Below are positions 2,376 to 30,172 of a stretch of DNA of 64,000 bases, piece after piece. Position 1 is the stretch's first letter. Every line of letters starts with the position of its first letter. The notes below the pieces were generated by a model. That model was not told the DNA's origin. It did not search any database and saw only the letters and a list, made by a program, of their open reading frames with translations. The DNA is taken from positions 652,000-715,999 of the forward strand of contig OZ242021.1 of the NCBI GenBank assembly GCA_965204925.1, given 5' to 3'. The DNA is from Candidatus Poriferihabitaceae bacterium. GTDB taxonomy: Bacteria; Pseudomonadota; Gammaproteobacteria; Arenicellales; Poriferihabitantaceae. The position numbers were made by a program, and so were the translations under genes.

Positions 2376-2442
2376 TTGCGGACTGTAGGCGTCCCGCGAT
2401 ACCGCTTCGCGCCGCGCCGCGCCGCAGGCAGAGGACAGCGGG

Positions 2443-11980: not shown

Positions 11981-12016
11981 GGTCTTCTCACCTTCAGGGT
12001 TAACTTGTCAACAGGT

Positions 12017-14086
12017 TCAATTTCGCACCCGAATCAGCGCATCGGCAACTACAGCTCCCTGTTGTTGCGGCCTGACAATCAGCGGGTTGATCTCCAGTTC
12101 GACGATCTCGTCGCGGCGCCTTTCGATGAGCTCGGCTACAGCCATTACAGTATCCACAACCGCTTCGACATCAGCCGGCGGCCGCTTGCGGAATCCGTCC
12201 AGCAAAGGCCGCGTTTTCAGTCTCCCGAGAGCAGCGTTTATGGCAGCGCGGTCGACCGGAAACAGCAATATTTCCCGATCCCTGATCAATTCGACAAGCA
12301 TGCCGCCAAAGCCGAGAACGAGGTAATGGCCAAACACCCGATCATAACCGACTCCGATCAACAATTCAGCGACAGCATCGGCAACAACCTGCTCCACCAG
12401 CAGGGTATCGGACAACCCGAACAGGCGGGCGCCTTGCTCGTCCAGGGTTTCCTCATCGTGGATTCCGAGCGCCACAGCGCCCGCTTCGGACTTGTGCGCG
12501 ATAAACCGGGATACGGCCTTCAATACCACAGGATAGCCGATTTTTTCCGCGGCCGCCCTGACCTCGTCCATGGTCCTCGCGGTGGTCGAGTCCGGCGCTC
12601 TGATACCCCAGGACCTTAAAAATTGCTTGGCCTCATTTTCATCCATACTGCGGGCGAGTTCAGGCTCGGCCGCTGTCGACAACCCGGGCGCTGCGGGCAT
12701 TGACCAGCCCCTGCCCCATGCTGCGCCGATTCTGCTGACCGTTTCAATCGCCGCGAGGGCCTGTTCCATACCGTGCAGGGGCGCCACGCCATTGTCCATG
12801 AGCCATGAACGGATTTCGGGATTGAGGTTTTCCGACAGACAGGTGACAACCGCGCCCCGGCAACCCGTCTGCCGGCAAGCTGTGACAAACGCCCGGGCCG
12901 CCTCCAGCCAATCGTCGATCACACAATCGTTGACAATGGGGAAGTCGATGACGAGCAGGGTCAGGTCATAGTTTGCGGACATCATGGCCGTGAACGCCGC
13001 ACTCATACGTTGCCGATCACCCCAGATAAAAGTGTGATAATCCAGCGGGTTATCAATGGCGACATATTCATTCAACGTTACCCGCAAGCGTGCCCGCTGA
13101 GCCTCCCCGATGGCCGGAAAAACCAGTTCCCGCCCGACAGCCAGATCTGCAATGAGCGCCGCCTCTCCGCCGGAACAACTCATTGACGCAATGCGGTTGC
13201 CGGGCAACGGGCCCACGACAAGAGCCAGTTTCAGCGCTTCCAGGAATGTTTCCATGTTGCCGGCAATACCGATACCGAGGCGGTTGAACAAGGCCGTATA
13301 AAGTCCCTCTTGTCCGGTCAGCGTAGCGGTATGGCTGAACGCGATACGCGCCCCGAGGCCCGACTTGCCCGTTTTCAGGACAATGACCGGCACCCTGCGC
13401 GCGCGCGCGCGGGCAGCCAGTTCGATAAACAGGGGCAAATTTCGCAGACCTTCAATGTACAGGCCGATCGCCTTTATCCTTTCGTTCTCAAGCGCCGCCG
13501 CCATGACCTCCTCGATACCGATCACGGCCTGGTTGCCCACGGTGACCAGCCAGGAAACCGACAATCCTCTTTGCTGCAACGTGAAATTGATGCCGATGTT
13601 TCCACTCGATGAAATGATCGCGGCGCCCTGTTCCACAGCCTGAAGCCCATGCTGATCCGGAAACATGGCCGCGCCCAGCAGAGCATTGATATATCCATAA
13701 CAATTCGGCCCCAATACCGGCATGTCTACGGCCGCCTCCCGCAATCTGCGCTGACGGACTACGCCCTCGTCCCCCACTTCGCTGAACCCCGAAGCGAGGC
13801 AGACCGCTCCACCCGCGCCGATGCGGTTCAGCTGATCGACGATACCGATCGCCGCTTCGGCCGGCGCCCCGATGAATACGGCATCGGGCGCTTCGGGCAA
13901 CAGACGGCAGTCAGCCAGACAGGCAATGCCGGCCATCGACTCTCTTTTCGGATTGACCGCCCACATCTTGCCCGCGAAGCCGAGCTTGCGGCATTGAACC
14001 AGGGCCTGCCCGGCTTCGCGCCCCCCGACCACCGCGACCGAGCGTGGATTCAAAAACCGGATCAGCCGATCGATGTCAACCCGCAC
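12017..14086 (-). CDS. ADP/NDP-forming acyl-CoA synthetase (fused CoA-binding, ligase-CoA and ATP-grasp domains)
   Basis: 689 aa, PRSVAVVGG...GPNCYGYIN...C-terminal ATP-grasp. GTG start at 14084-14086. Confidence 0.8.
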   Translation of the reverse strand: MRVDIDRLIRFLNPRSVAVVGGREAGQALVQCRKLGFAGKMWAVNPKRESMAGIACLADCRLLPEAPDAVFIGAPAEAAIGIVDQLNRIGAGGAVCLASGFSEVGDEGVVRQRRLREAAVDMPVLGPNCYGYINALLGAAMFPDQHGLQAVEQGAAIISSSGNIGINFTLQQRGLSVSWLVTVGNQAVIGIEEVMAAALENERIKAIGLYIEGLRNLPLFIELAARARARRVPVIVLKTGKSGLGARIAFSHTATLTGQEGLYTALFNRLGIGIAGNMETFLEALKLALVVGPLPGNRIASMSCSGGEAALIADLAVGRELVFPAIGEAQRARLRVTLNEYVAIDNPLDYHTFIWGDRQRMSAAFTAMMSANYDLTLLVIDFPIVNDCVIDDWLEAARAFVTACRQTGCRGAVVTCLSENLNPEIRSWLMDNGVAPLHGMEQALAAIETVSRIGAAWGRGWSMPAAPGLSTAAEPELARSMDENEAKQFLRSWGIRAPDSTTARTMDEVRAAAEKIGYPVVLKAVSRFIAHKSEAGAVALGIHDEETLDEQGARLFGLSDTLLVEQVVADAVAELLIGVGYDRVFGHYLVLGFGGMLVELIRDREILLFPVDRAAINAALGRLKTRPLLDGFRKRPPADVEAVVDTVMAVAELIERRRDEIVELEINPLIVRPQQQGAVVADALIRVRN

Positions 14087-14108
14087 CAGCCTGTCTCCCG
14101 TCCAGTCT

Positions 14109-15281
14109 TCACGATTTGCTTTCCAACGGTCGCAATAGCGCGCGGGAAATAATCAGACGCTGGATTTCACTCGTTCCTTCCCAGATACGCTCTACCCGGG
14201 CATCGCGCCAGATTCTCTCCAAAGGGAGGTCCGACATCAGACCCATGCCGCCAAATATCTGTAGCGCCTCGTCGGCTATGAAAGCCAGCGCTTCGCTCGC
14301 CGACAGCTTGGCAAGAGCCGCGTCCATATCGGTCATTTCATTGTTACAGGCACGCGCGCCGGCCCGGTAGGTAATCAACTCGGCTGACCTGAGCTTCAGC
14401 GCCATATCCGCCAATTTGAAACTGACCCCCTGAAACTTCCCGATGGTCTGGTTGAACTGGATGCGGCCGGCGGCATGCTCACAGGCCAGCTCGAAGGCGC
14501 GATCACAACGACCCAGGCAGATCGCCGCCACTTGCAGCCTGGTATTGCCCAGCCAGTCATTGGCCACCTCAAACCCCTTGTCCACCTCGCCCAATACCTG
14601 GCTTGCCGGAATGCGGCATCGATCGAATTCAAGAATGCAATTATGATATCCGCGATTGGACACACTCCGGTAACCCGGACGTATGACATAGCCGGGCGTA
14701 CCGGTATCGACAAGAAATGCAGTGATTCTCTTTCTCGGGCCTCTCGGCGTATGATCGACTCCCGTAGCGGCGAACAGGATCACGAAATCGGACACATCCG
14801 CATGGCTGATGAAATGCTTGGTACCCTGAATCATGAAATCGCCGCCGTCCCTGTGCGCCCGGCATGACATGGAACGGACATCGGAGCCGGCGCCCGGTTC
14901 GGTCATGGCCAGACAGTCGATCTTCTCTCCGCGTATGCACGGATACAGGTATTTTTCCCTCTGCTCCGCGGTACAGGCCTGCAGGATATTACTGGGACGC
15001 CCAACGGCGTACTGCAATGCGTAGCTGGCCCTGCCCAGTTCGCGGTCAAGCATGCACATCGACAGCGGGTCCAGTCCGCCGCCGCCCAACTCCGCGGGCA
15101 TCGCCGCGGCGTACAGCCCCGCCTCGATCGAGCGCCCGATAATCTGTTGGCGAAGTTCAGGGCGAACGTCACCGCACTGCTCGACTTCCTGTTCAAACGG
15201 ATACAGTTCCCGCTCGACGAAACGTTTGGCCGTCTCGATCAGCATCCGTTGCTCTTCGCTGTAATCGAAGTTCATGATCAT
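14109..15281 (-). CDS. acyl-CoA dehydrogenase
   Basis: 390 aa, ...LAMTEPGAGSD...GTSEIQRLIISR. The start ATG overlaps the stop codon of the upstream gene (ATGA at 15278-15281). Confidence 0.85.
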   Translation of the reverse strand: MIMNFDYSEEQRMLIETAKRFVERELYPFEQEVEQCGDVRPELRQQIIGRSIEAGLYAAAMPAELGGGGLDPLSMCMLDRELGRASYALQYAVGRPSNILQACTAEQREKYLYPCIRGEKIDCLAMTEPGAGSDVRSMSCRAHRDGGDFMIQGTKHFISHADVSDFVILFAATGVDHTPRGPRKRITAFLVDTGTPGYVIRPGYRSVSNRGYHNCILEFDRCRIPASQVLGEVDKGFEVANDWLGNTRLQVAAICLGRCDRAFELACEHAAGRIQFNQTIGKFQGVSFKLADMALKLRSAELITYRAGARACNNEMTDMDAALAKLSASEALAFIADEALQIFGGMGLMSDLPLERIWRDARVERIWEGTSEIQRLIISRALLRPLESKS

Positions 15282-16369
15282 ACCCTCCCGTGTCCCGTTG
15301 CCGGCGTTCCGTTATCGGCGCCCTCGAGCGTTGTGGCATGGACAGCGTCGCCGTTTGTCTGCAAAGCGTCCTCGCGCGAGAGTCGCAAGAGCGATTCCTG
15401 ATATCGGGTCAGCGCCTTGCCCGCGGCGTAATCGTTTGCCTGCAATGCCCGCAGTATGGCGACGATACAGTCATCCCTTTTCCTTTCCAGTTCAGCGATA
15501 CTGCGCCCCTCAGCCTGCTGGTCGGACTGCGCCGATATTTTGTCGAGCAACTGATCGGTCAGCTCGGGGCCATCAAACCGGGCCCACGGCCATTTCAGCG
15601 ACGCGCCGAACTGGGACATGAAATGGCGTATCCCGCCCTCGCCGCCGGCAATGCGAAAAGTCTCGAACGGTCCCATGAATGCCCAGCGGATACCCGGACC
15701 ATACGCGATCGCCTGATCCAGTTCATCGCAGGTAGCGACATCCTCATTCAAAAGGTGCAGAGCTTCCCGCCACAGGGCTTCCATGAGGCGGTCGGCAATA
15801 AACGCCTCGACCTCCTTGCGCACAACGAGGGGGTGCATACCGATCCCCGCATAAAACGCGCGCGCGCGGTCAACAACGCGGCGGCTGGTGGCATTGCCCG
15901 CCACGATTTCAACGAGCGGCATGAGATAGACCGGATTGAACGGGTGGCCGACGATTACGCGCTCGGGATGCTCGACGCCTTCCTGCATTTCTCCCGGCAA
16001 CAAGCCGGAAGAGGAAGAGGCCACGATCACCGCAGCGCCCGTATGCTTGCAAATTTCCTGCATCAATACCTTCTTGACCTTGATGCGCTCGGGTCCGCTC
16101 TCCTGAACGAAATCGGTGCCGGACACGGCCGCCTCAATACTGTCGACCAGACATAACCGCCCCCTGACACGCACCGGAGCCGAAGTCATGCTGCGACAGG
16201 CGCGCAACGCATGATCAAGCACCTGATCGATACGCTTTCCGATCCCCGGCGCCGGGTCATACAGGTTGACGTCGATATTATTGATCAACAAGCGGGCAGC
16301 CCACGCCGAGCCGATGACCCCGCCGCCGACCAGCCCGACCGTCTTGACTTTGCCATTTGCCTCGCTCAC
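15278..16369 (-). CDS. 3-hydroxyacyl-CoA dehydrogenase family, L-carnitine dehydrogenase (LcdH)-like
   Basis: VGLVGGGVIGSAWAARL Rossmann motif, HPFNPVYLMPLVE, FIADRLMEALWREALHL, RHFMSQFG, SIAELERKRDDC. As I recall it, this pattern is characteristic of LcdH rather than generic FadB. GTG start. Confidence 0.7.
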   Translation of the reverse strand: MSEANGKVKTVGLVGGGVIGSAWAARLLINNIDVNLYDPAPGIGKRIDQVLDHALRACRSMTSAPVRVRGRLCLVDSIEAAVSGTDFVQESGPERIKVKKVLMQEICKHTGAAVIVASSSSGLLPGEMQEGVEHPERVIVGHPFNPVYLMPLVEIVAGNATSRRVVDRARAFYAGIGMHPLVVRKEVEAFIADRLMEALWREALHLLNEDVATCDELDQAIAYGPGIRWAFMGPFETFRIAGGEGGIRHFMSQFGASLKWPWARFDGPELTDQLLDKISAQSDQQAEGRSIAELERKRDDCIVAILRALQANDYAAGKALTRYQESLLRLSREDALQTNGDAVHATTLEGADNGTPATGHGRV

Positions 16370-17064: not shown

Positions 17065-18216
17065 TCACACGCGCCCTTGCCATGCCGGGGCGCGCACGCG
17101 CTGCCACCTGCGTGTCACCACTTCCGCCTGCCGGCGCTGCCCGCGCCCGATGTCCATAGACAGGACACTGCCCGCCGCGCTGAACCCGATGTTGACCTTC
17201 GCAAAGGCGATATTGGAGCCGTATTTGCGGGAGTACGCCAGGCTCGTCACAATTCCCACCCGGTTATCGTTGCCATCGAGCAAATCCCGGGTATGACGCA
17301 ACGGACACAATGGCTCACCACTGACAAACAGGTAAACGAGGGCATTCCTGATACCCTCCCGCAAAATCCGCTCGAGCGCTTTCGCAGACAGGCACTCGGC
17401 TGTCTTCGCCGGCTGGAAAAAGCGATCGAGCCCGATTTCATAAGGATTGTCCTCAAGCGTCATATCACTGCCGTAAGACAATAACCCGCGCTCCATGCGG
17501 TCCACGAGATTGGGGCAACCGGCGCGAATATGGTACTTCTGTCCAACTTCCCAAATCGCGTCCCACAAGGCAAGGCCTTGCGCAGAATCCTCAAGATAAA
17601 TTTCGTATCCCCCCTGCCCGCTCCAGCCCGATCTGGCTACGATCAGCTCCATGCCCGCGATAGCGGCGCGGACATACCGGAAAAACTTCAGTTCCCGGAT
17701 CTCCTCACCCACCATTTCCGCGATCAGATCATCGGCTTTCGGGCCCTGCACCGCCAGAGGGCTGACATCGGGCATGAATACGTCGACATCCAGGTTGCGC
17801 CCGCAGGCAATACCCTTCAGCCACAACAGGACACCGGAATCGGAGATCGACAGCCAGTAGCGATCGTCGGCCAGTTTGAGCAGCACCGGATCATTGACAA
17901 TCCCGCCCCGCTCATCGACGAGAACGACATACATGCACTGGCCAATACGGCAGCGCGACAGATCCCTCGGCGTGACCAGTTCGACCAGTTTCAGGGCATC
18001 GGGGCCGGCCACCTCGACCTGACGCTGACACGACACATCCCAGATCTGCACATGTCGGCACAGATGTTCGTAATCTTCCTCATGGGAGCGGAACACAGAG
18101 GCGAGCGGCGCATGATTGTAAACGGTAAACACCCGCGCGCCCTGCTCGAACACGCGCTCTTCAAAGGGAGTTTTCCCGATTCGCCGGGACAAAACCAGTT
18201 CGGGGGGCGCCTTCAT
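17065..18216 (-). CDS. GcvT-family aminomethyltransferase/demethylase, DmdA (DMSP demethylase)-like
   Basis: 383 aa from the ATG at 18214-18216, a stand-alone GcvT fold with no FAD domain. TVYNH, VQIWDVS, DVSPLAVQGP, FFRY, VARSGWSGQGGYEIY and RAGCPN...GLLSYGSDM match my recollection of the DmdA clade. Substrate is unproven. Confidence 0.6.
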   Translation of the reverse strand: MKAPPELVLSRRIGKTPFEERVFEQGARVFTVYNHAPLASVFRSHEEDYEHLCRHVQIWDVSCQRQVEVAGPDALKLVELVTPRDLSRCRIGQCMYVVLVDERGGIVNDPVLLKLADDRYWLSISDSGVLLWLKGIACGRNLDVDVFMPDVSPLAVQGPKADDLIAEMVGEEIRELKFFRYVRAAIAGMELIVARSGWSGQGGYEIYLEDSAQGLALWDAIWEVGQKYHIRAGCPNLVDRMERGLLSYGSDMTLEDNPYEIGLDRFFQPAKTAECLSAKALERILREGIRNALVYLFVSGEPLCPLRHTRDLLDGNDNRVGIVTSLAYSRKYGSNIAFAKVNIGFSAAGSVLSMDIGRGQRRQAEVVTRRWQRVRAPAWQGRV

Positions 18217-18330
18217 AAGATTCCGAATCCTTGCATGCGATAACGAAAAACAGGCGGGGATTATGCACCGAAAACGGTCATCACGGGAAACAAATTGCCA
18301 TGTTGTCGCCTCATGGAGTATAGTTGCCGC

Positions 18331-19974
18331 ATGAAAGAAAACTACGATGTCCTGGATCGGGTGAATGGTCTCAACCATGTGGAACTCACCCCCATTTCTT
18401 TCCTGCAGCGCGCCAGCGAGGTTTATGCAGACGCTGCCGGGATCATTTACGGCAGCCGCGTCTCAACCTGGAAAGAAGTGTCGAAACGGTGCCGTAGCCT
18501 GGCGGACGGACTTGGCAAACTGGGAGTAAAAAAGGGAGATACCGTATCAATAATGGCTGCCAATACCCCGCAACTGGCAGAAGCCCACTTCGGGGTTCCC
18601 ATGTCGGGAGGCGTATTGAATACGATCAACACGCGGCTTGACGTCGATACGATCGCCTTTATTCTCGCGCACAGCGACGCCCGCGTCCTGATCACCGACA
18701 CCCGGTTCTCCGATGTCGTTTCCAGGGCCCTGTCGGCGCTTGACGACCCGCCTGTCGTTATTGACATTATCGATAGCGAGGCGCCGCCCCCGCAGGCCGG
18801 CGGTCAGCGCCTCGGCAACATGACATACGAGGAATTGCTCGACAGCGGAGATGAAAACGGCGGCTGGGGCATGCCCCAATCGGAATGGGACGCGCTGACG
18901 CTGAACTACACTTCAGGCACCAGTGGGCAGCCCAAGGGCGTCGTCTACCATCATCGCGGCGCTTACCTGATGTCCCTGGGTACGGTCGCGGCCTGGCAAA
19001 TCCCGAGATTCGCACGCTATTTGTATACGGTTCCGATGTTCCACTGCAATGGCTGGGGGCATGTCTGGAGCATGGCGCTCATGGGCGGCGCCCTCGTCTG
19101 CAACCGCGCAGTCAGCGCCGAAAATATCTTTGCCGCGATACGCGAACAGCGCATTACCCACTTCGGAGCGGCGCCGATTGTCCTCGCCATGCTGGCCAAT
19201 GCGCCGGATTCGATCAAATATATCCCGGACTACACCGTTCAGGTGATGACGGCAGGCGCCCCGCCACCGAGCAAGATACTGGAAAAGACCCAGCGACTTG
19301 GACTCAATGTCATTCATGTATACGGCCTCACCGAAACCTTCGGCCATGTCGTTTTCTGTGACTGGAAAACCCGATGGTCGGAGCTGACCCCCGAAGAACA
19401 GGCCGAAATCAAGGCCCGGCAGGGAGTCCGCTTCCCGATCATGCAGGCAGCCCGGGTCATGGACGTCCACTCCGGCGAAATGGCGCCGGCTGACGGGCGC
19501 ACGATCGGGGAAATCGTCCTGCGCGGCAATGCGATCATGAAAGGTTACTACAAAAATCCCGGGGCGACCGCCGAAGCGTTCCGGGACGGCTGGTTCCATA
19601 GCGGCGATCTGGCCGTTGTACATGCCGATGGCTATATGGAAATCAAGGACAGACTGAAGGACATTATCATATCCGGCGGAGAAAACATTTCTTCGATCGA
19701 GATCGAATCGACGCTTTACAAATTCCCGAAAGTAGCCGCTGCCGCAGTCGTCGCAAAGCCGGATGAAAAATGGGGAGAAACCCCTTGCGCGTTTATCGAA
19801 CTGAAACCCGGCATGCAATCGACCGAAGAGGAGATCATTGCCTTTTGCAGGCAGAACATGGCCGGCTACAAACGTCCGAAACAGGTCATATTCCTCGAAT
19901 TGCCAAAGACCTCCACCGGAAAAATCCAGAAATTCAAGCTGCGTGAAATGGTCGCCGCCGGCGCTATGACGTGA
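18331..19974 (+). CDS. AMP-forming acyl-CoA synthetase (DmdB / short-medium chain acyl-CoA ligase-like)
   Basis: LNYTSGTSGQPKGV (AMP motif I), VYGLTET, DRLKDIIISGGENI, TSTGKIQK. ATG at 18331. Confidence 0.85.
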   Translation: MKENYDVLDRVNGLNHVELTPISFLQRASEVYADAAGIIYGSRVSTWKEVSKRCRSLADGLGKLGVKKGDTVSIMAANTPQLAEAHFGVPMSGGVLNTINTRLDVDTIAFILAHSDARVLITDTRFSDVVSRALSALDDPPVVIDIIDSEAPPPQAGGQRLGNMTYEELLDSGDENGGWGMPQSEWDALTLNYTSGTSGQPKGVVYHHRGAYLMSLGTVAAWQIPRFARYLYTVPMFHCNGWGHVWSMALMGGALVCNRAVSAENIFAAIREQRITHFGAAPIVLAMLANAPDSIKYIPDYTVQVMTAGAPPPSKILEKTQRLGLNVIHVYGLTETFGHVVFCDWKTRWSELTPEEQAEIKARQGVRFPIMQAARVMDVHSGEMAPADGRTIGEIVLRGNAIMKGYYKNPGATAEAFRDGWFHSGDLAVVHADGYMEIKDRLKDIIISGGENISSIEIESTLYKFPKVAAAAVVAKPDEKWGETPCAFIELKPGMQSTEEEIIAFCRQNMAGYKRPKQVIFLELPKTSTGKIQKFKLREMVAAGAMT

Positions 19975-20148: not shown

Positions 20149-21501
20149 ATGATGACCACGCGCGTTGCAATTATCGGAGCCGGACCCAGCGGGCTGGCTC
20201 AACTCAGGGCTTTCAAATCCGCCCGTGAAAAAGGGACTGAAATTCCGGAAATTGTCTGCTTTGAGAAGCAATCCGACTGGGGGGGCTTGTGGAACTACAC
20301 GTGGCGTACCGGGCTGGATGAGTATGGAGAACCGGTACATGGCAGCATGTACCGCTACCTGTGGTCGAATGGACCCAAGGAAGGACTGGAATTTGCCGAT
20401 TATTCCTTTGAGGAACATTTTGGCAAGCCGATCGCGTCATACCCGCCGCGCGCCGTCCTGTTCGACTACATCGCCGGGCGCGTCAAAAAAGCCGGAGTTC
20501 GCAGCCTCATCCGCTTCCGGTCAACAGTCAGGCATGTCACGTATGATGACGCCAGCGAGAAGTTTACGGTGACCGTCGAGGATCATGCGCAAGACCGCGA
20601 ATACAGCGAGCCATTCGACTGTGTGATCGTTGCCACCGGTCATTTCTCCATTCCCCATGTCCCCCATTTCGATGGCTTCGATTCCTTCCCCGGGCGCATC
20701 CTGCACGCCCATGATTTCCGCGACGCCGTGGAGTTCCGCGGGCAGGACATTCTCATTATCGGGACCTCTTATTCGGCGGAAGATATCGGTTCGCAATGCT
20801 GGAAGTACGGGGCAAGGTTCATCACCGTATCCCATCGTACGGCGCCGACCGGGTATCACTGGCCGGACAACTGGCAGGAAGTCCCCCTGCTGCAAAAGGT
20901 GGAGGGCAATACGGCGACATTCAAGGACGGCAGTACCCGCGACGTCGATTCGATCATTATATGCACCGGCTATCTCCACCACTTCCCGTTCATGGAGGCA
21001 AAACTGAGACTGAAAACGAACAACCGCCTGTATCCGGTCAATCTGTACAACGGCGTGGTCTGGGAACACAACCCGAAACTGATGTATCTGGGCATGCAGG
21101 ATCAATGGTATACGTTCAACATGTTCGACGCCCAGGCCTGGTATGCGCGCGACCTCATTCTCGGCAGGCTGCAAGTCCCCTCACAACCCGAAATGCACGC
21201 GGACATTGAAAAATGGCGCGAAGCCGAGGACAACATTGCGGACGATTACGGTGCGATCAAATACCAGGGGGACTATACGCTGCACTTGATGGGCATGACC
21301 GATTATCCGCGTTTCGACATAAAAGAGGCCAACCGGGCTTTCTATGAATGGAAGAAAAACAAGAAGAAGGACATCATGACATTTCGTGATTTCGGACACC
21401 GCTCACCGTTAACGGGAACGATGGCCCCGGCCCACCATACCCCGTGGAAAGACGCGCTCGACGATTCTCTCGGTAGTTACCTCGATATTCGGCGAGATTG
21501 A
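20149..21501 (+). CDS. tmm: flavin-containing monooxygenase, bacterial trimethylamine monooxygenase type
   Basis: 450 aa. Contains IIGAGPSG (FAD), the FMO-identifying motif [11 protein letters not shown] (FxGxxxHxxxY/F) and [10 protein letters not shown] (NADPH GxSxxA). GAGAGGA lies upstream of the ATG at 20149. Convergent with tdm. Confidence 0.8.
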
Positions 21502-21539
21502 ATTGTGCGGGTCATTCTCCTTGACTGGCGAGGCTTGGC

Positions 21540-23906
21540 TCATGAAGAGGGGCGGTAATTCCCCCGCACCCGTTCCTTTCCGGGGTCGAAATGGGGGAAC
21601 GGGACGACCGTTGCCGGAATACGCTTCTGATGTCCGTCCAGCTTTCCGACCTCCACTTGCGTTCCCGGTGCGCAATGAATGATCTTGATTCTGCACAAGG
21701 CAATATTTTTCCCGAGAAAAGGCGAGATCATGGCGCTCGTAATGGCGCCCACCTGCTCGCGGCCGACAAACACAGGGTCGCCGTGGGCAGCGGCTTCTCC
21801 GCCGTTCACATCCAGCCCGACCAGCTTCTGGCGGGGATTTTTCTTGCGTTCGATCAGTTGCTCGCGGCCGATAAAGTCATCCTGCTTGGATTTCAGGGGA
21901 ACGGTAAAGCCGATGCCGGCCTCAAACGGGTCGGTCTGATCGCAAAACTCGTAACCGGCGAAAACGAGACCGGCCTCGATGCGCAACAGATCCAGCGCCT
22001 CCAGACCGAGCGGGGCTATGCCAAATTCCTGTCCGGCATCCCGCACCGCGTCCCAGACCGCTTCTGCATCACGGGGATGGCAGAATATCTCATACCCCCG
22101 CTCACCGGTATAGCCCGTTCGCGAGCAGACGATCGGAACCCCGTCCGCGCCGCCGATACGGGCGATGGAAAACCGAAACCAGTCGAGTTCTTCGAGGCGA
22201 GCCTGGTCAGGACGGGTCCACACACATTTCGCCAGCGTTTCCATGCTTTTCGGTCCCTGCACCTGCAAGTTATGAAGCTGTGAGGTCGAGTCCTTCACCC
22301 AGACCCGCAGCTTGCGCCTTGCAGCCTGCTCGCGAATCCACAACCCTGAGGTATCGTTGCCCCCTATCCATCGAAAATTGCGGTCGCCGAGCCTGAATAC
22401 GGTGCCGTCATCGATCATACCGCCCGACTCATAGCACATCGCGGTATAGACGACCTGCCCGATCGACATCTTGCGGACATCCCGCGTAACGCAGGTCTGC
22501 ATCAACAGCTCAGCGTCCGGGCCGGTTACTTCGTATTTTCTCAACGGCGACAGGTCGGTCATGACGACCCGTTCCCGGCATGCCCAATACTCCGCGACCG
22601 CGCCGAGGTTGGTAAAGTTGTCTGCCAGCCAGTAACCATTGTACTCGGAGAAATTGCGGGTCAGTCGAGAGGTTCTGTTGTGAAAACTGGTCTCTTGTGT
22701 CATTTGAGGCTCCGCGTCGGTGGTTTTCCTGAATGCAATGGCGCGTTTGAACAGGTTTTTACCCGTATACGTTCGCACATGAATATCCGTTGGCGCCCAC
22801 CCGTTGGCAGGGTCGATATCACAGGGGCAAGCGGACGAAACACAAACGAGGTCGGTCAATGCCTGCATCAATACATAGTCCCCCGGTCTCGACCAGGGGT
22901 CGTCAAACAGGTACAGGTATGAATCATCAAAAAACGTATTGAAGAACAGGTTCATGGCATGCCACCCTGCCCTCGGTTCGATCGGCCACGCGGCCAGCGC
23001 CCGATTGAAGTTTTCCGAACAGTTGACGTGTCCGGGATAACCGGCCTCGTCATAGTACTTGCTGGTACAGGCTATGCCAAAACTGTCGTGGCGGCCGCAG
23101 GTATCCTGCACGACTTCCACGAGCGGTTTGAAATCAATGTCATAGAACCTCGAATAAAGCCCCGGAGCGGGCCACGCGCTACCCATCAGGGAACGGGTCG
23201 TGGTGGCGCTCAGGTTGCGGGTCTTGCCCGCGTCCAGCGCGCCCTGATCGAAGCACTGGAAATCGGAGCACTGGCGGCCATCGACATCGATGATCTGGAT
23301 GTACTCCCCGGCCCGCACCTCGTAGCCTTGCGCCGTAGCGGCGTCAATACGAAAGCTCTGCGCTTCGTCAGCGAGCGGCTCGGGCAGATCGTGTTCGGTA
23401 AGGCAACCGGGGTTCGCGCGAGTAATATAAACAACGAGATCGGTCGGCGGGTCATTGGCGCCGTCCACGGCCATGGCATTGCCGGGAGCGCAGATCAGGC
23501 CGATCGATTCTCGCTCCGCCGTCAGTTTCACCGCTGAACCGGGCGCGGTTTCCCCGCACAGCAGTTCGGCGCCCCGGCAACCTGCCAAATCAACAGAAAA
23601 AGAGCGCAGCTTGCGGCGGATTTTCGCTGCGCCGGCGTTACCGGTATCCAGCATTTCGGCAATCGGCGCCGCGCCGGCAGAAGGTTCGACCCCGAGAGAG
23701 GCGGTCACATTGGCTCCGGTTGCATCGAACGCAAAGACAAGCGCCGGCTGACGCCCTTCCCGATCGACGATCTCCAGCTGATCACCCGCCATGATCGGTA
23801 CGGCAATGACGGCGCCGCCACGCACCACGCAGCGCTCCCTGCCAAGCCACCGCTCACCCAGTCCGGGCTCCCTCAGACGAATTACAGAGCTGATGTCTGT
23901 CGTCAT
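21540..23906 (-). CDS. tdm: trimethylamine-N-oxide demethylase type protein (N-terminal DUF1989 plus C-terminal GcvT/THF-binding domain)
   Basis: 788 aa. The N-terminal half resembles urea-carboxylase-associated DUF1989 (...IIDVDGRQCSDF...CSENFN...). The C-terminal half is a GcvT aminomethyltransferase fold. This two-domain architecture is the one described for Tdm. Confidence 0.8.
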   Translation of the reverse strand: MTTDISSVIRLREPGLGERWLGRERCVVRGGAVIAVPIMAGDQLEIVDREGRQPALVFAFDATGANVTASLGVEPSAGAAPIAEMLDTGNAGAAKIRRKLRSFSVDLAGCRGAELLCGETAPGSAVKLTAERESIGLICAPGNAMAVDGANDPPTDLVVYITRANPGCLTEHDLPEPLADEAQSFRIDAATAQGYEVRAGEYIQIIDVDGRQCSDFQCFDQGALDAGKTRNLSATTTRSLMGSAWPAPGLYSRFYDIDFKPLVEVVQDTCGRHDSFGIACTSKYYDEAGYPGHVNCSENFNRALAAWPIEPRAGWHAMNLFFNTFFDDSYLYLFDDPWSRPGDYVLMQALTDLVCVSSACPCDIDPANGWAPTDIHVRTYTGKNLFKRAIAFRKTTDAEPQMTQETSFHNRTSRLTRNFSEYNGYWLADNFTNLGAVAEYWACRERVVMTDLSPLRKYEVTGPDAELLMQTCVTRDVRKMSIGQVVYTAMCYESGGMIDDGTVFRLGDRNFRWIGGNDTSGLWIREQAARRKLRVWVKDSTSQLHNLQVQGPKSMETLAKCVWTRPDQARLEELDWFRFSIARIGGADGVPIVCSRTGYTGERGYEIFCHPRDAEAVWDAVRDAGQEFGIAPLGLEALDLLRIEAGLVFAGYEFCDQTDPFEAGIGFTVPLKSKQDDFIGREQLIERKKNPRQKLVGLDVNGGEAAAHGDPVFVGREQVGAITSAMISPFLGKNIALCRIKIIHCAPGTQVEVGKLDGHQKRIPATVVPFPHFDPGKERVRGNYRPSS

Positions 23907-24656
23907 TTATATATGAGCGATTGAGGCCGACCCGGCGCAGATCGCAAGGTAGCGGGGTATGACATTTTCGATACCATGGAAGAGGCACTCGACAGTGAGC
24001 GCGTGACCGATCGACACTTCCAGAATACCCGGTATCTCAAGAAATCGGGCAATATTATCAAGATCAAGGTCATGACCCGCGTTGACCCCGACCCCAAGTT
24101 CGTTTGCCTGCATGGCCGCTTCCAGATATTGATCGAAAACGGGTTGTTCATACGGGCCGCCGGACGCGCTGGCCCAGGCTTCGGTATACAACTCGATCCT
24201 GTCCGCCCCCGCTCTGGCAGCCGCTTCAACGCGCTGTACAACCGGATCAACAAACAGGGAGCTGCGAATTCCGGCATCGGCGAGACGTTGCAGGGCAGGT
24301 TCCAGGATTGCCGCGGCGCAGTCAATATCCCAGCCATGATCCGACGTCAACTGATTTGCGTCATCCGGCACGAGCGTGCATTGATCGGGCTTTACGTCCT
24401 CGACCATTGCCAGGAAATCCTGCGCAGGATACCCTTCGATATTGAATTCTGTCTGCGCATACTGTTTGCGCAGCGCCACAAGATCATAAACATCCCGCTT
24501 TCTGGCGTGGCGTTCGTCCGGACGGGGGTGTACCGTGATGCCGTCGACCCCGAGATCGATACATTTGCGCGCATACTCAACGACGTTGGGATAATCACGG
24601 CCGCGGGAATTTCGCAGAAGCGCGATCTTGTTCAGATTGACACTGAGTTTCGTCAC
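23907..24656 (-). CDS. pdxJ: pyridoxine 5'-phosphate synthase
   Basis: LSVNLNKIALLRNSRG...DGITVHPRPDERH...VNAGHDL...SIGHAL. Colinear with PdxJ, 249 aa. Its TAA stop directly abuts the tdm ATG (TAAATG). Confidence 0.85.
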   Translation of the reverse strand: MTKLSVNLNKIALLRNSRGRDYPNVVEYARKCIDLGVDGITVHPRPDERHARKRDVYDLVALRKQYAQTEFNIEGYPAQDFLAMVEDVKPDQCTLVPDDANQLTSDHGWDIDCAAAILEPALQRLADAGIRSSLFVDPVVQRVEAAARAGADRIELYTEAWASASGGPYEQPVFDQYLEAAMQANELGVGVNAGHDLDLDNIARFLEIPGILEVSIGHALTVECLFHGIENVIPRYLAICAGSASIAHI

Positions 24657-24670
24657 ATCAGAGCGGATCG

Positions 24671-25054
24671 TCAGAATTTTCTGTAGGCGTTCATCAGATC
24701 AACCATGGGATGGGAACCCGACATCTGGAATTTGACGAGCAATTCGCGCGCGATCATATCGCGGTCCTGCTGGTTATCCGGCAATTCCACGCTTTTCGGG
24801 ATTTGCACCCAGCCGTTGATATTGCGGTCGAATACGGCCGGCTTGCCCTCTTCGTACCCCATGTGTACATCTTCCAGCCAGTTCAGATCCTGCCAGCCCA
24901 TGATTTTCATATAGGTTTTCAAAAATTCGGTACAGCGCTCCATGTCCGGCGCGAGATTGACGTCATAGCGGTAACCGATATGCTGGCCGATAGCCTTCTC
25001 GCGATCAGAATCAAGGCCGTCCGATTCGATAAACTTGTCCACATCATTATTCAT
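24671..25054 (-). CDS. hypothetical protein (127 aa, acidic, no recognisable motif)
   Basis: The ORF has GGAG 8 nt upstream of the ATG at 25052-25054. It is wedged between mgsC (stop 25080) and pdxJ (start 24656) on the same strand. No family recognised. Confidence 0.5.
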   Translation of the reverse strand: MNNDVDKFIESDGLDSDREKAIGQHIGYRYDVNLAPDMERCTEFLKTYMKIMGWQDLNWLEDVHMGYEEGKPAVFDRNINGWVQIPKSVELPDNQQDRDMIARELLVKFQMSGSHPMVDLMNAYRKF

Positions 25055-25079
25055 GTTGATCTCCAACGCTCCGCCTCAT

Positions 25080-26420
25080 TCAAAAACGGGTCATATCGGG
25101 TCGCCCGACTGTGTACTGGGTACCGGCAAGGGGGACCTGTGCCAATGCCGAGGCCTCCATGGTGAGCGCCGCCAGGTCTTCCGGTTCCAGCGAATGGATA
25201 TTGGTTTTGCCGCAGGCGCGCGCCAGAAGCTGCGCCTCGATCGTCAACGTATGCAGGAAGTTGTAGACCCGCTCTGCGGCCGTGTCCGGGTCCAGGCGTT
25301 TGCGCAGAACCGGGTCCTGCGTGGCAACGCCGACCGGACAGCGGCCGGTATGGCAATGGTAGCAGTAGCCCGCTTCAACGCCGATCTCATTTTCAAAATC
25401 GGCTTCCGGAATATCCTTGTTGCAGTTCAACGCCATCAATGCGGCGTGGCCGATGGCAACGGCGTCGGCGCCCAGCGCCAGCGCTTTGGCGACATCGCCG
25501 CCATTGCGTATTCCACCGGCATAAACGAGCGAGATTTCATCCGCCTTGCCGACATCCTCAAGGGCGCGACGCGCCTGGCGAATGGCGGCGATGCCCGGCA
25601 CGCCCGTTTCTTCGGTCGCCAGATGAGGGCCGGCGCCGGTGCCGCCCTCCATGCCGTCAATATAGATCGAGTCGGGCCCGGTCTTGGCGGCCATACGCAC
25701 GTCATCATATACCCGCGCCGCGCCCAGCTTCAGCTGGATCGGGATTTCACCGTTGGTGGCTTCACGCACCTCGTTGATTTTCAGCGCAAGGTCATCAGGT
25801 CCCAGCCAGTCCGGGTGGCGCGCCGGCGAACGCTGGTCGATTCCGGCCGGCAGGGAGCGCATTTCGGCAACCTGATCGGTGACTTTCTGCCCCATGAGGT
25901 GCCCGCCCAACCCCACTTTGCAGCCCTGTCCGATGAAAAATTCGACACAGTCCGCCAACCGCAGATGGTTGGGGTTGAAGCCGTAGCGCGACTGGATACA
26001 TTGATACATCCACTTTTCCGAGTATCGGCGTTCATCCGGTATCATGCCGCCTTCACCGGAACAGGTGGCCGTTCCGGCCATCGTCGCCCCCCGCGCCAGC
26101 GCCGTCTTCGCCTCATAGGACAAGGCGCCGAAGCTCATGCCCGTGATATAGACAGGAATGTCGAGTTCCAGCGGACGTTTCGCTTTCGGGCCGATCACGG
26201 TGCGCGTCAGGCATTTCTCGCGGTATCCCTCGATTACGAACCGCGTCAATGTGCCGGGCATGAATGTCAAGTCGTCCCAGCTCGGGATTTTCTTGAACAG
26301 GGAAAAACCGCGCATGCGGTAGCGTCCGAGTTCCGACTTGATATGGATGTCATCAATGACCTCCGGCGGGAATATAAAACTCTGTCCCAGATGGTTGGGA
26401 TTTCTTTTTTCTTTTGACAT
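25080..26420 (-). CDS. mgsC: N-methylglutamate synthase subunit C type (FMN-binding glutamate-synthase domain protein)
   Basis: 446 aa, ITGMSFGALSYEAK...GMEGGTGAGP. GltB central FMN-domain homology. Context is with mgsA, mgsB and gmaS. Confidence 0.8.
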   Translation of the reverse strand: MSKEKRNPNHLGQSFIFPPEVIDDIHIKSELGRYRMRGFSLFKKIPSWDDLTFMPGTLTRFVIEGYREKCLTRTVIGPKAKRPLELDIPVYITGMSFGALSYEAKTALARGATMAGTATCSGEGGMIPDERRYSEKWMYQCIQSRYGFNPNHLRLADCVEFFIGQGCKVGLGGHLMGQKVTDQVAEMRSLPAGIDQRSPARHPDWLGPDDLALKINEVREATNGEIPIQLKLGAARVYDDVRMAAKTGPDSIYIDGMEGGTGAGPHLATEETGVPGIAAIRQARRALEDVGKADEISLVYAGGIRNGGDVAKALALGADAVAIGHAALMALNCNKDIPEADFENEIGVEAGYCYHCHTGRCPVGVATQDPVLRKRLDPDTAAERVYNFLHTLTIEAQLLARACGKTNIHSLEPEDLAALTMEASALAQVPLAGTQYTVGRPDMTRF

Positions 26421-26451
26421 TTCTGTTATCGCTTACCGCTGTTTTGCCGTT

Positions 26452-27291
26452 TCAAAGGATCAGTTTTTTCTCGGTCGGTTCGAGATTGTCGTAGTTCCAC
26501 AGACTCTTGCCGGAAACGAACTTCTTCATGTTCTCCACCCCGCACGCCGGCGCAATATCGTACATTGCCAGCTTCTGCGTGAGCCACTTCAACTCTGTTT
26601 CATTTATTTCCGACCCAACGCAATCGACGCCGAGTTCCTGTACTTTTCCACCGACATAAATGACGCCGTCGTACATTGAATCTCCCAGGTTCTTGCCCGC
26701 GTCTCCACAAATCACCATGCGTCCGCGTTGCATCATGAACCCGGAAAAAGCGCCCGTCCTGCCGCCGACAATAATCGTGCCCCCCTTCTGGTCGATACCG
26801 GTTCTGGAACCGACATCGCCCTTGCATACGAGGTCTCCACCCCGTATGGCAGCCCCGAAAGTCGAACCGGCATTGCCTTCGACAACGACTGTTCCGGCCA
26901 TCATGTTCTCGGCGCAGGACCAACCCACGCGGCCGCTGATGCGGATATTCGGACCATCGATCAGGCCACAACCGAAATAACCGAGAGAACCTTCGAAATG
27001 CATGTTGGCGCGATTCAATATTCCCACTCCGACGGCATGGCGCGCGCGCGGATTGCGCACCGTGACAGCGCCATACCCCTGGCGCATCAATTCCCGGATT
27101 TTCAGGTTGATCGCGGTTGCCTCCATGTCCACGGCGTCGAACGCCGCCGCCCGCTCCATATCGACTTCAAACGCCCACGGATACGTATAGTTCTCTTCCT
27201 CCGTAGCGCTGAAAAAACGCTGCTGGGTGCGCCCTTTCAGCCGCTCCTCATGCAACCCCATATTATGGGATCTGTGATCTACGCCTGCCAT
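26452..27291 (-). CDS. mgsB: N-methylglutamate synthase subunit B type (GXGXG beta-helix domain protein)
   Basis: Repeated G-x-x-G-x-x-x-G beta-helix segment (VVEGNAGSTFGAAIRGGDLVCKGDVGSRTG...IIVGGRTGAFSGF), as in the GltB C-terminal domain. Confidence 0.8.
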   Translation of the reverse strand: MAGVDHRSHNMGLHEERLKGRTQQRFFSATEEENYTYPWAFEVDMERAAAFDAVDMEATAINLKIRELMRQGYGAVTVRNPRARHAVGVGILNRANMHFEGSLGYFGCGLIDGPNIRISGRVGWSCAENMMAGTVVVEGNAGSTFGAAIRGGDLVCKGDVGSRTGIDQKGGTIIVGGRTGAFSGFMMQRGRMVICGDAGKNLGDSMYDGVIYVGGKVQELGVDCVGSEINETELKWLTQKLAMYDIAPACGVENMKKFVSGKSLWNYDNLEPTEKKLIL

Positions 27292-28214
27292 ACCCTGACC
27301 TCCCCTTCATAAGGATCGAATGTGTGGATTTCATCGGGGAAGATGCTGCGGATTGAAACCTCCTCGGAAGCCAGCCCGACAAAATCCTCGCTCTCATACA
27401 ACACCATCGGCTTGGCGGCCATGACATCCTTTGCCATGCCGAGTTGATCGCTGGTAGCGACAAGATAGGTGAATACGCCGTCGAGTTCCTCCACGGAACG
27501 GGTCATTGCCGTCTCGAGATCATCACCCTTACCGATGCGATCCGCAATGTATACGGCGATCAGTTCGGAGTCGCAATTCGACATGAAGCGGTGTCCGCGC
27601 CGTTCCATTTCCCGCCGGAAACTCCAGTAGTTGGTCAGCTGTCCATTGTGTACGACCGACACATCGTTGAATGGGTAGGCCCAGTAAGGGTGCGCCGAAC
27701 GAATATCCACATCGGACTCGGTCGCCATGCGCGTATGACCGATCGCATGGGTGCCGGCAAAACCCGACAGGCCGTACTGCCGTGATACCCGTTCGGCATC
27801 GCCGAGGTCCTTGACAAGTTCCAGACTCTTGCCGATCGACAGGATTTCCACCCCGTCTATATCTTCGACGTAATCGGCGAGACGACGCATATCGCCCTCG
27901 AAAAAAAAGGCATAGCGATGAGAATAATCGGTGACGCGATCACGCCCGCAGACCGTGGCGCCCAGCTTGTCGAGGCGCGCGTCGACTTCCCGCTGACGGT
28001 CGACAACCTTTTCATGGATATCGAATCCGCTTGCCATGTCCTCCTGTTCAGCGACCTTGAAGCGCATCACATACTGACCGCTGACGGGATTGCCATAGAG
28101 CGCGAACCCGGTGGAATCGGGTCCCCGATGTTTCAGCGATTGAAGCATGGACGTCATTTCCGATCCGACATCGGAACTCTTGCCGCGGTGGATAAGCCCT
28201 GCGATACCACACAT
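27279..28214 (-). CDS. mgsA: N-methylglutamate synthase subunit A type (class II, Ntn glutamine amidotransferase)
   Basis: N-terminal MCGIAG nucleophile cysteine and the class II GATase fold. Overlaps the mgsB start by 13 nt. Confidence 0.8.
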   Translation of the reverse strand: MCGIAGLIHRGKSSDVGSEMTSMLQSLKHRGPDSTGFALYGNPVSGQYVMRFKVAEQEDMASGFDIHEKVVDRQREVDARLDKLGATVCGRDRVTDYSHRYAFFFEGDMRRLADYVEDIDGVEILSIGKSLELVKDLGDAERVSRQYGLSGFAGTHAIGHTRMATESDVDIRSAHPYWAYPFNDVSVVHNGQLTNYWSFRREMERRGHRFMSNCDSELIAVYIADRIGKGDDLETAMTRSVEELDGVFTYLVATSDQLGMAKDVMAAKPMVLYESEDFVGLASEEVSIRSIFPDEIHTFDPYEGEVRVWQA

Positions 28215-28271
28215 GATAATTCCTCACTTAACGGGTTTCCGGTTTTGATGTCTAACCCCCGGCAAAAGGCG

Positions 28272-29810
28272 TCAGGGCAGACAGTCGAGATAGTTGGCAA
28301 GGTCCCAATCGGACACGGCATGATTGAAACGCTCCCATTCGTCATTCTTGTAGTGGTGGTAGACGCGGTACATGTCGCCCGGCATTGACGAACGTATGAC
28401 CTCATCGTTTTCCAGTTCCCTGAGAGCGTCCCCCAGAGTCATCGGCAGCTTTTTGACCTTCTTGCCCGCATCCATCGCTTCGTAAATATTGCGTTCTTCC
28501 GGTTCCCCCGGATCGAGGTTGCGGCTGATGCCGTCGTCAAACGCCTTCAGCAGCGCGCCCGCCATCAGGTACGGATTGACCATGGAATCAACGGAACGGT
28601 ACTCAAACCGCCCCGGCGCCGATACCCGCAGTGCGCAGGTTCTGTTCTGGAAACCCCAGTCGGCAAAGACCGGAGCCCAGAAACCGGTATCCCACAACCG
28701 TCTGTACGAGTTGACCGTGGACGAGCCGACCGAGGTCAGGGCGCCGAGATGCTCGATCACGCCCCCTATGGCCTTCAATCCGATCGCACCCGGCTTGACC
28801 TCGTCAATGGCAAAATCCGGCATGAAATGATTGACCCCGCCTTGCAGGTAGGTAAATACGCCGTCCAGCCCCGGAAGCGTTTCATGATGCAACCGATTGA
28901 CGACTTCCTCACCGCCGGACCACAGCGAAACATTATGGTGGCAGCCGGAGGCGGACACATTCATGAACGGCTTGGACATGAAGCAGGCATGCAGCCCTTT
29001 CTCACGGGCGACCTGGGCGCAGATCTGGCGATAAGTGGTCAGACGGTCCGAGTTCCTGAGCGCATCGTCGAACATCCAGTTCAGCTCCAGTTGCCCCGGC
29101 GCGTCCTCATGGTCGCCCTGGATCATGTCAAACCCCATTTTCTGGCCGTATTCGATCACCTGCATGAAGGCCGGACGCAATTCCTCGAACTGATCGATGT
29201 GGTAACAGTTGGGCTTCGTTACGCCGCCCCTGAGCTGGCGGTTTTCATCCAGTCTGAGCCACATCATCTCCGGCTCGGTACCGGCGCGCATGTGCATATT
29301 GTGCTTTTCTGCGAACTCTCGCTGGATGATTTTCAGGTTTCCGCGGCAGTCCGATGTCAGGTGGGCGCCCGGGTCGATGCGCTCCTCGCGGTTACGGTAG
29401 CAAGTACAGAATACGCGGCCAATGCGCTTGTCCCAGGGCAGTTGGACAAATGTTTCCGGATCCGGGATGCCGACCAGCTCCGACGATTCGGGACCGTAGC
29501 CGATGTAATTGCCGTGACGGTCGACATAGAGGTTGGCCGTTGAACCATAAACCAGTTGAAACCCTCTCTCCGATACCCTCTCCCAGTGATCGGCGGGAAT
29601 CCCCTTGCCGACAATTCGGCCGGTCACGGAAACAAACTGGAAATAGACATAGGTAACGCCCGTTTCACGGATTTTCTCACTGACCTGCCTGACCAGTTCG
29701 GCGCGCCCCGGCGCATTGACGCAGCGCTCAAGATCGGTCGATGAGCGGCTGGGGGCAACCGAGCGCGCGGAGGTCGTGTTTTGTCCTGCAGGCCTGTTCT
29801 CTTTAACCAT
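28272..29810 (-). CDS. gmaS: gamma-glutamylmethylamide synthetase type (glutamine synthetase family)
   Basis: Glutamine synthetase catalytic-domain homology throughout. Lies directly upstream of mgsABC. ATG at 29808-29810 is preceded by GGAG. About 40 N-terminal residues are low-complexity, so the true start may lie further in. Confidence 0.75.
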   Translation of the reverse strand: MVKENRPAGQNTTSARSVAPSRSSTDLERCVNAPGRAELVRQVSEKIRETGVTYVYFQFVSVTGRIVGKGIPADHWERVSERGFQLVYGSTANLYVDRHGNYIGYGPESSELVGIPDPETFVQLPWDKRIGRVFCTCYRNREERIDPGAHLTSDCRGNLKIIQREFAEKHNMHMRAGTEPEMMWLRLDENRQLRGGVTKPNCYHIDQFEELRPAFMQVIEYGQKMGFDMIQGDHEDAPGQLELNWMFDDALRNSDRLTTYRQICAQVAREKGLHACFMSKPFMNVSASGCHHNVSLWSGGEEVVNRLHHETLPGLDGVFTYLQGGVNHFMPDFAIDEVKPGAIGLKAIGGVIEHLGALTSVGSSTVNSYRRLWDTGFWAPVFADWGFQNRTCALRVSAPGRFEYRSVDSMVNPYLMAGALLKAFDDGISRNLDPGEPEERNIYEAMDAGKKVKKLPMTLGDALRELENDEVIRSSMPGDMYRVYHHYKNDEWERFNHAVSDWDLANYLDCLP

Positions 29811-30172
29811 TTTATTCTCCAATGGGGCATTTAATGGATACGCGACCTGTTATTAAACAGGATGAGAAACCGCTTTGCAACCGGTAGACGGTGGACGATT
29901 GCAATTTCGTGACAGTTCGGGAAGCGGCGAAGCGGCTCTTCCGCCCGCGGGCGGACACGGCAACCCGTCCGCGCCACAGTTCCGGTTCACGGCATATTCT
30001 TGCGGGTAGCGGGGCAGTAAACGGACAGGCGGACAACAGACGCTGGAAGCGCCGGGTCAGGAATCTCGCCAAAATAAACTGTTTGTTCAGGCGGCCGGTA
30101 TGTCACCGTTTCGGTGGGGGTGTTTCTGGACGGGCAGAGCCACCGGGGCGGTCCGCAAGAGCGCAGGACATT

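Follow-up and report, generated by a model that had tools for sequence, protein, structure and literature searches.

The window analysed here is a stretch of 64,000 nucleotides from the genome of a sponge-type gammaproteobacterium of the Arenicellales/Poriferihabitaceae, a genome of 2.62 Mb in a single contig (C1). The minus strand of the window carries a module of five genes encoding a gamma-glutamyl-amine ligase-like protein (GS'), three proteins with the architecture of the synthase MgsABC (A', B' and C'), and a small protein of no known family (orf127). A preliminary description of the window had read the first four of these genes as gmaS-mgsABC of the N-methylglutamate (NMG) pathway. The protein families and the architecture were correctly recognised, but the genes are not those of the canonical NMG pathway and instead make up a paralogous module. 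GS'-A'B'C'-orf127 is a deep paralogue of the GmaS-MgsABC front end with a new fifth gene product. We tentatively favour the possibility that the module provides a route, independent of the DmmDABC monooxygenase, by which the dimethylamine (DMA) released by the demethylase Tdm would be captured on glutamate. Coordinates without a prefix are those of the window, coordinates prefixed C1 are those of the host genome, and L-numbers (L011, L023 and so on) are labels of loci in relatives.

Protein identities were called with the equivalog cut-offs of NCBIfam, with Pfam domains, and with bit scores to structures in the PDB. GS' (28272-29810, minus strand) is encoded by the first gene of the minus-strand string and does not pass TIGR03105, the equivalog model for GmaS/type III glutamine synthetase (GS), on which its score is 296.6 (cut-off 469.6). 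Compared with the structure of the assayed Rhodovulum enzyme RhGmaS (7CQL) GS' scores 181 bits, and compared with an archaeal GS it scores 204 bits, so it is no closer to RhGmaS than to the latter. Its identity to the canonical GmaS of its own host amounts to only 26.7%. In a maximum-likelihood tree, GS' and its counterparts from SAR11, Acidobacteriota and other lineages form a tight separate clade (support 100/100) whose stem measures 3.97 changes per column; GS' lies outside the other clade, which holds RhGmaS, the canonical GmaS of the host and the canonical GmaS of SAR11. The label gmaS thus stands at the level of the family and fails on the equivalog model and on the position outside the validated GmaS clade.

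The pocket itself is conserved. All seven residues that line the amine pocket of RhGmaS (Tyr147, Gln175, Asp177, Glu179, Glu186, Asn188 and Lys30') are aligned with identical residues in GS', and the pocket motif QxDHEDxxGQxExNW is of the GmaS type, where true GS has SHHEVAPGQHEVDF. Since these seven residues are kept, GS' would be a small-alkylamine ligase by design and not an ammonia GS; it is predicted as such, and the ammonia GS assignment is not favoured. Two further features set the protein apart. An insertion of ~25 aa is common to the whole GS' clade, and an N-terminal tail rich in K, S and T is specific to the host's bacterial family. The preliminary description had remarked on this unusual, low-complexity-like N-terminus, which is present, though its length is ~27 aa and not ~40. 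The host also encodes a third GS-like paralogue (C1:1649312-1650706), 27.6% identical to GS', whose branch in the tree is very long and close to the GmaS clade. An additional GS-like gene, with a TIGR03105 score of 340-378 bits and thus under the cut-off, is present in many carriers of the module.

The host genome contains the canonical genes as well. A mgsA-mgsB-mgsC-gmaS operon is located at C1:2396843-2401137 (minus strand of L091:8841-13189), 1.7 Mb from the tmm/tdm island, with dnaX on one side and an oligopeptide/nickel-type ABC transporter on the other. The GmaS encoded in this operon passes TIGR03105 with a score of 667.8 and matches 7CQL with 659 bits. The subunit genes of the module are adjacent to one another in the window and encode, by Pfam, the class II glutamine amidotransferase, GXGXG and FMN-binding Glu_synthase proteins expected of an MgsABC architecture: A' (27279-28214, minus strand; GATase_6 and GATase_7) is the paralogue of MgsA, B' (26452-27291, minus strand; PF01493) that of MgsB, and C' (25080-26420, minus strand; PF01645, E = 6.6e-92) that of MgsC. 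Their identities to the host's canonical MgsA, MgsB and MgsC (the last encoded at C1:2398210-2399514) are 31.5%, 38% and 50%, respectively, while C' is 79-97% identical across the module loci, those of SAR11 included.

The canonical NMG pathway, GmaS-MgsABC-MgdABCD, is known from Methylocella silvestris, Methyloversatilis universalis and Ruegeria pomeroyi, and RhGmaS (7CQL) is its structurally solved ligase. The module resembles this pathway in having the four protein families in one operon, in the seven pocket residues, and in its association with tmm and tdm and, in some relatives, with sox/mgd-type genes. It differs from it in having the GS' gene first, where canonical gmaS is last, in the ~25 aa insertion, in the divergence of its proteins, in its coexistence with the canonical set in ~90% of carriers, and in the addition of the obligatory orf127 and, in many lineages, of a DAO-family gene and a second ORF (open reading frame) of no known family. 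The subunits may also be compared with GltB of the GS-GOGAT system, whose amidotransferase, FMN and GXGXG domains are matched by A', C' and B', respectively. Unlike GltB, the module consists of three separate proteins, has no counterpart of the central domain or of the small NADPH subunit, and goes with a ligase of the GmaS-like and not of the ammonia type. The homology to glutamate synthase domains raises the question of whether the module acts in a GS-GOGAT-like assimilation of ammonia, or uses some other small amine (ethylamine or hydroxylamine, for example), and is merely co-regulated with the catabolism of trimethylamine N-oxide (TMAO). Ligases of the GS family are promiscuous, and RhGmaS accepts ethylamine, hydroxylamine, propylamine and ammonium (PMC7948447). 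This explanation is nevertheless considered improbable, as the QxDHEDxxGQxExNW motif is that of GmaS and unlike that of true GS, and as the module is tightly coupled, both physically and phyletically, to Tdm, Tmm and, in relatives, the sox/mgd genes.

The fifth gene, orf127 (24671-25054, minus strand), encodes a protein of 14.9 kDa with a pI of 4.8 and has a GGAG Shine-Dalgarno sequence 6 nt 5' of its ATG. It directly follows the C' gene in every locus with a flank long enough to tell (70 of 80). An alignment of 36 sequences from Gamma- and Alphaproteobacteria, Acidobacteriota and one actinobacterial metagenome-assembled genome (MAG) has 65 invariant columns out of 127, and nucleotide changes fall mostly at the third codon position (for example 6/6/29 and 21/13/62 for the three positions). 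The family comprises more than 8000 clusters at 90% identity; the named ones are all "hypothetical" and none has a Pfam domain. No sequence match was found in Pfam, NCBIfam or the PDB, and the best match of a profile search of the PDB was an unrelated Toxoplasma protein (E = 0.0087). An AlphaFold2 model (pLDDT 75.4) gave no Foldseek match at E <= 0.001, and a profile search of 1.84 billion representative sequences returned the family itself only, with no fusions and no remote relatives. The orf127 family is by these criteria real, new and narrowly diverged, and its gene is the fifth of the module. Its place on the same strand, in the same predicted operon and at a conserved position in the module loci, agrees with the view of it as an accessory gene of the string. 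In one gammaproteobacterial MAG (L029), two copies of orf127, 81% and 77% identical to the window protein, are found 6 kb apart (at 8001 and 14096).

The organisation of the module was examined in relatives with a degenerate-pattern scan that confirmed 596 relatives, of which 80 loci were kept for the analysis of context. The order GS'-A'-B'-C'-orf127 is constant in all 80 as far as the flanks reach. The tdm gene is within 8 kb of the module in 22 of the 80, and in the window the two are in one predicted operon. Many relatives, including the congeners L011 and L039, have a gene for a DAO-family flavoprotein upstream of GS' (447 aa in L011, at 1880-3223), and 50 of the 80 loci have a second ORF of 160-200 aa and of no Pfam family downstream of orf127; in L011 it is a 199-aa ORF of no known family (L011:8398-8994) between orf127 and pdxJ. 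Homology of L011 and L039 to the window begins only at the start of GS', and the DNA upstream of the DAO gene in these congeners maps to C1:1741263-1742164. A rearrangement breakpoint is thus placed exactly at the start of GS', next to the intergenic region at 29811-30172, and the DAO gene and the second ORF have been lost in the host.

The module is also present in SAR11. When the motif WLEDVHMGYEE was searched for as AT-rich codons, at least 120 contigs of Pelagibacteraceae were matched, cultured strains included. The 80 Pelagibacteraceae loci that were examined have the module at 57-80% identity, and an upstream DAO gene is found in 24 of them; where it is present, the layout is DAO-GS'-A'B'C'-orf127. 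A canonical gmaS, in some loci together with mgsABC, is found 2-3 kb from the module. The cultured carriers include HTCC8051, HTCC9565, HIMB1483 and HIMB2201, and the DAO gene was seen in HTCC9565 and HIMB2201.

The DMA proposed as the substrate of the module would come from Tdm, and the identities of tmm and tdm are secure. The tmm gene (20149-21501, plus strand, ATG at 20149) encodes a trimethylamine monooxygenase that scores 819.3 on NF058570 (cut-off 675). Its matches to the solved bacterial Tmm/mFMO structures 2VQ7, 2XVE and 5IPY reach 700-727 bits and that to 6KBW reaches 580 bits, compared with 185 bits to the next FMO family (5NMW), which confirms the earlier assignment of this flavin monooxygenase by placing it nearest to the validated bacterial enzymes. 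The tdm gene (21540-23906, minus strand), the last gene of the minus-strand string, encodes a TMAO demethylase (DUF1989 and GcvT) that scores 1171.7 on NF053776 against a cut-off of 1100 and has the Pfam domains in the expected order, DUF1989, GCV_T and GCV_T_C. It is a genuine tdm and the only copy in the genome. From these matches, Tmm is predicted to convert trimethylamine to TMAO, and Tdm to convert TMAO to DMA and a one-carbon unit.

The distribution of the module was compared with that of Tdm, canonical GmaS and Dmm in two samples, 61 genomes of the host's bacterial family and, separately, 50 module carriers from diverse taxa. Within the family, Tdm and the module occur together in 53 genomes and are both lacking in 7 genomes of three genera; a single genome, an 86%-complete MAG, has Tdm without the module, and none has the module without Tdm. 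The association is significant by Fisher's exact test (p = 1.8e-8, kinship ignored). DmmA is absent in 52 of the 54 Tdm-bearing genomes of the family, and canonical GmaS is present in 48-49 of the 61. Among the 50 diverse carriers, Tdm is found in 43 and canonical GmaS scoring over the cut-off in 45, and DmmA is lacking in 45. When genomes bearing DmmA were taken as the starting point (n = 39), orf127 was found in three, all of the host's family. The 36 from outside the family, which include Pseudomonas, Neptuniibacter and Paraburkholderia, are all without orf127, and in most of them dmm has tmm, tdm or canonical mgs-gmaS as a neighbour. A random sample of the phylum contained orf127 in only 2 of 400 genomes; the associations of the module are therefore far above background. 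By these counts the module is co-inherited with Tdm, often (by prediction) co-transcribed with it and usually present alongside canonical GmaS, and in genomes with Tdm the module and Dmm largely complement each other in their occurrence.

The preliminary description had pointed out that two steps of the pathway from trimethylamine to glutamate, those of Dmm and of Mgd, are missing from the window. By Pfam and NCBIfam the window does indeed have neither dmm genes nor mgd genes of the sox type. A search of the whole genome separated the two cases: operons of the mgd type exist elsewhere, which makes that gap trivial, and the absence of dmm is real. Two complete soxBDAG operons are located at C1:530189-535645 (sox1) and C1:1407655-1412904 (sox2). 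Their soxB genes score 705.5 and 614.2 on TIGR01373 (cut-off 529.45), and each is followed by soxD, soxA and an ORF in the position of soxG. Neither operon is linked to gmaS/mgs in the host, where the neighbours are housekeeping genes. Orthologues of sox2 (80-84% identity) directly follow orf127 in the sister genomes L023 and L030, and a sox2-like operon (61% identity) is located beside dmm and gmaS in L096. Given the two operons elsewhere and the position of the sox2 orthologues next to orf127, the enzyme for this step, NMG dehydrogenase, is very probably encoded elsewhere in the genome.

The gap at Dmm is of another kind. PF11927, the model for the heme/PAS alpha subunit DmmA, has no match in the whole host genome, and a tblastn search of that genome with the four proteins of a relative's dmm operon (DmmD, a 203-aa protein, a 318-aa protein and DmmA) found nothing specific. 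None of the 8 genomes sampled from the genus (the host's among them) matches PF11927, compared with only 2 of the 61 from the family; because Dmm was detected in these two and in other genomes, the model is known to work. DmmDABC is truly absent from the host genome. The gap is real, but the pattern has been published. Lidbury et al. (2017) described the possession of Tmm, Tdm and GmaS without Dmm as the "DMA bottleneck" of SAR11, which universally lacks Dmm, and the accepted view is that most ocean bacteria with Tdm cannot degrade DMA because DmmDABC is lacking (PMC5520151). The host has the same gene complement and the same gap as SAR11, and both carry the module. Unlike SAR11, the host is a sponge-type gammaproteobacterium, has the module in one string with pdxJ and tdm, and has no DAO gene beside it. 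A search of the literature found no description of a GmaS paralogue, of an mgsD or of an alternative route for DMA.

One way in which the gap could be filled is by a non-orthologous enzyme that oxidises DMA, in which case the module would be unrelated to this step. The family of trimethylamine dehydrogenase (TMADH), dimethylamine dehydrogenase (DMADH) and histamine dehydrogenase is, to our knowledge, the only other known source of an enzyme that oxidises DMA. The genome encodes one member of this OYE/Fe-S family, a protein of 690 aa outside the window at C1 ~859.7-861.8 kb (L133:436-2508, minus strand). Its score of 526 bits to TMADH (1DJN) would allow for such a role, but its best match is histamine dehydrogenase (3K30, 728 bits), to which it is nearer, and its gene, a neighbour of ddl at a distance of 145 kb from the island, shows no linkage to methylamine genes. 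DAO-GcvT fusions are the other candidates. Six such ORFs of 805-864 aa, which resemble dimethylglycine or sarcosine dehydrogenase, are found at C1 293258, 613365, 1064191, 1559101, 2245707 and 2324130, many N-demethylases for a 2.6-Mb genome. Overall, we regard oxidation of DMA by an enzyme of either kind as having little likelihood.

A route for DMA through the module, the reading we favour, would proceed as follows. GS' would join DMA to glutamate in an ATP-dependent reaction to give gamma-glutamyl-dimethylamide, which A'B'C', with orf127 as an extra and essential new subunit, would convert to N,N-dimethylglutamate in the manner of NMG synthase. A flavoprotein would then strip the methyl groups stepwise to yield glutamate and methylene-tetrahydrofolate; in the host this would probably be the product of the sox2 operon, and in relatives the adjacent DAO enzyme. 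Canonical GmaS-MgsABC would then serve free methylamine. That the module is not needed for methylamine is argued from the presence of canonical GmaS in 45 of the 50 carriers. RhGmaS turns over DMA, weakly, with a Km of 16 mM and a kcat of 2.6 per s (PMC7948447), which makes the ligation of DMA chemically plausible. Such a module would take the same position in the pathway as DmmDABC, the removal of the DMA made by Tdm, and the distributions of the two are those of largely complementary systems. There is no relation in sequence or mechanism between them: DmmDABC is a monooxygenase of the heme/PAS type that includes a reductase and a GcvT subunit, unlike the module, which is an ATP-dependent ligase with a glutamate-synthase-like complex. 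In Ruegeria pomeroyi, a dmmA mutant is unable to draw nitrogen from DMA (PMC5520151, PMC13390433).

Several observations weigh against a route for DMA. The seven pocket residues of GS' are identical to those of a methylamine-preferring GmaS and so give no pointer to a bulkier amine. We know of no precedent for the formation of a tertiary amide and its hydrolysis by an Ntn-amidotransferase. The host genome is without both the DAO gene and the second ORF that flank the module in congeners. The phyletic counts ignore shared ancestry, and DmmA is found in 5 of the 50 carriers; in three members of the family all three systems (Dmm, the module and the canonical set) are found within 10-14 kb of one another, which shows that they do not strictly exclude each other. 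The persistence of canonical GmaS after the loss of Tdm, tried as a test, does not discriminate either, as all seven Tdm-lacking genomes of the family have lost canonical GmaS together with the module, and co-loss does not single out the latter. Lastly, one carrier, L083, combines the module with sox genes but has neither Tdm nor canonical GmaS, which looks like a self-contained methylamine pathway.

Much of this evidence fits the main rival, in which the module would be an additional set of isozymes for monomethylamine, differing for example in affinity or regulation. DMA derived from Tdm would then be excreted, as in the published "DMA bottleneck", and only one methyl group of TMAO and external methylamine would be used. 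The seven identical pocket residues and the shared architecture with GmaS and MgsABC are as expected of an isozyme, and so is the occurrence of Dmm and the module side by side in some genomes. The module is the sole GmaS-like system in L083 and in five genomes of the family that have Tdm and the module without canonical GmaS. The literature holds no evidence of DMA use by SAR11 (PMC5520151), which counts in the same direction. A second methylamine system would, however, be redundant in the 90% of carriers that already have a canonical GmaS near the assayed RhGmaS, and five redundant genes would be costly in streamlined genomes of 1.3-2.6 Mb. The occurrence of the module also follows that of Tdm and not that of the methylamine genes, and outside the family the Tmm/Tdm genomes that bear Dmm are without it. 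On balance the isozyme explanation appears rather unlikely, and capture of DMA on glutamate is retained as the tentative proposal.

The remaining genes of the region are as follows. ORF positions and layout agree with those given previously. Tmm is convergent with tdm, with 38 nt between their ends, and the spacing along the string GS'/A'/B'/C'/orf127/pdxJ/tdm is 57, -13, 31, 25, 14 and 0 nt. Scans for promoter and terminator consensus sequences gave no more matches than shuffled sequence, and a search of Rfam over 11000-34000 matched no RNA family. The seven-gene string does hold, as had been noted, pdxJ and an ORF of no known family (orf127). The pdxJ gene (23907-24656, minus strand), for pyridoxine 5'-phosphate synthase, abuts tdm and scores 324.1 on NF003626 / TIGR00559 (cut-off 222). 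A tblastn search of the whole genome gave one match. As the sole copy, pdxJ is a housekeeping gene, and the idea of a second, condition-specific copy is ruled out. It is found at this position only in the congeners L011 and L039 and in the Arenicellales relatives L014 and L026.

A stand-alone GcvT-like gene (17065-18216, minus strand, ATG at 18216) had been put forward as a stand-in for a missing step. It is instead dmdA, for dimethylsulfoniopropionate (DMSP) demethylase, with an NF009133 equivalog score of 440.6 (cut-off 410) and the domains GCV_T and GCV_T_C, and this score rules it out as a substitute for Dmm or Mgd. A second dmdA-like paralogue, 42.7% identical to the window DmdA, is located at C1:2313189-2314280. 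Divergent from dmdA is a gene for an acyl-CoA synthetase (18295-19974, plus strand) that scores 814 on NF006020 (cut-off 677) and 315 on the MMPA-CoA ligase model (cut-off 822), and is DmdB-like at best. Adjoining dmdA and tmm, a four-gene operon of the carnitine type (11198-16369) encodes a crotonobetainyl-CoA-hydratase-like protein, an ADP-forming CoA ligase, an acyl-CoA dehydrogenase and a carnitine-dehydrogenase-like protein, all four under their equivalog cut-offs; its position suggests an island for the catabolism of quaternary amines. The window represents a catabolic island for methylated amines and DMSP.

Methylated amines are a major marine pool of nitrogen and one-carbon units and are precursors of aerosols. 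The window illustrates that a reconstruction of the methylamine pathway from domain content can select the wrong paralogue, and it draws attention to the orf127 family, which is large, highly conserved and without a Pfam or NCBIfam model, whatever the substrate of the module. The main value of the analysis is that the genes read as gmaS-mgsABC-orf127 are recognised as an uncharacterised sister module, which makes the question of DMA directly testable. If the proposal is correct, the oceanic "DMA bottleneck" would in part be a gap in annotation, as SAR11 and many other marine bacteria with Tdm and without Dmm carry the module. Should the module handle DMA, models of DMA flux and of the energy and nitrogen yield from TMAO would change, both for bacterioplankton and for sponge symbionts.

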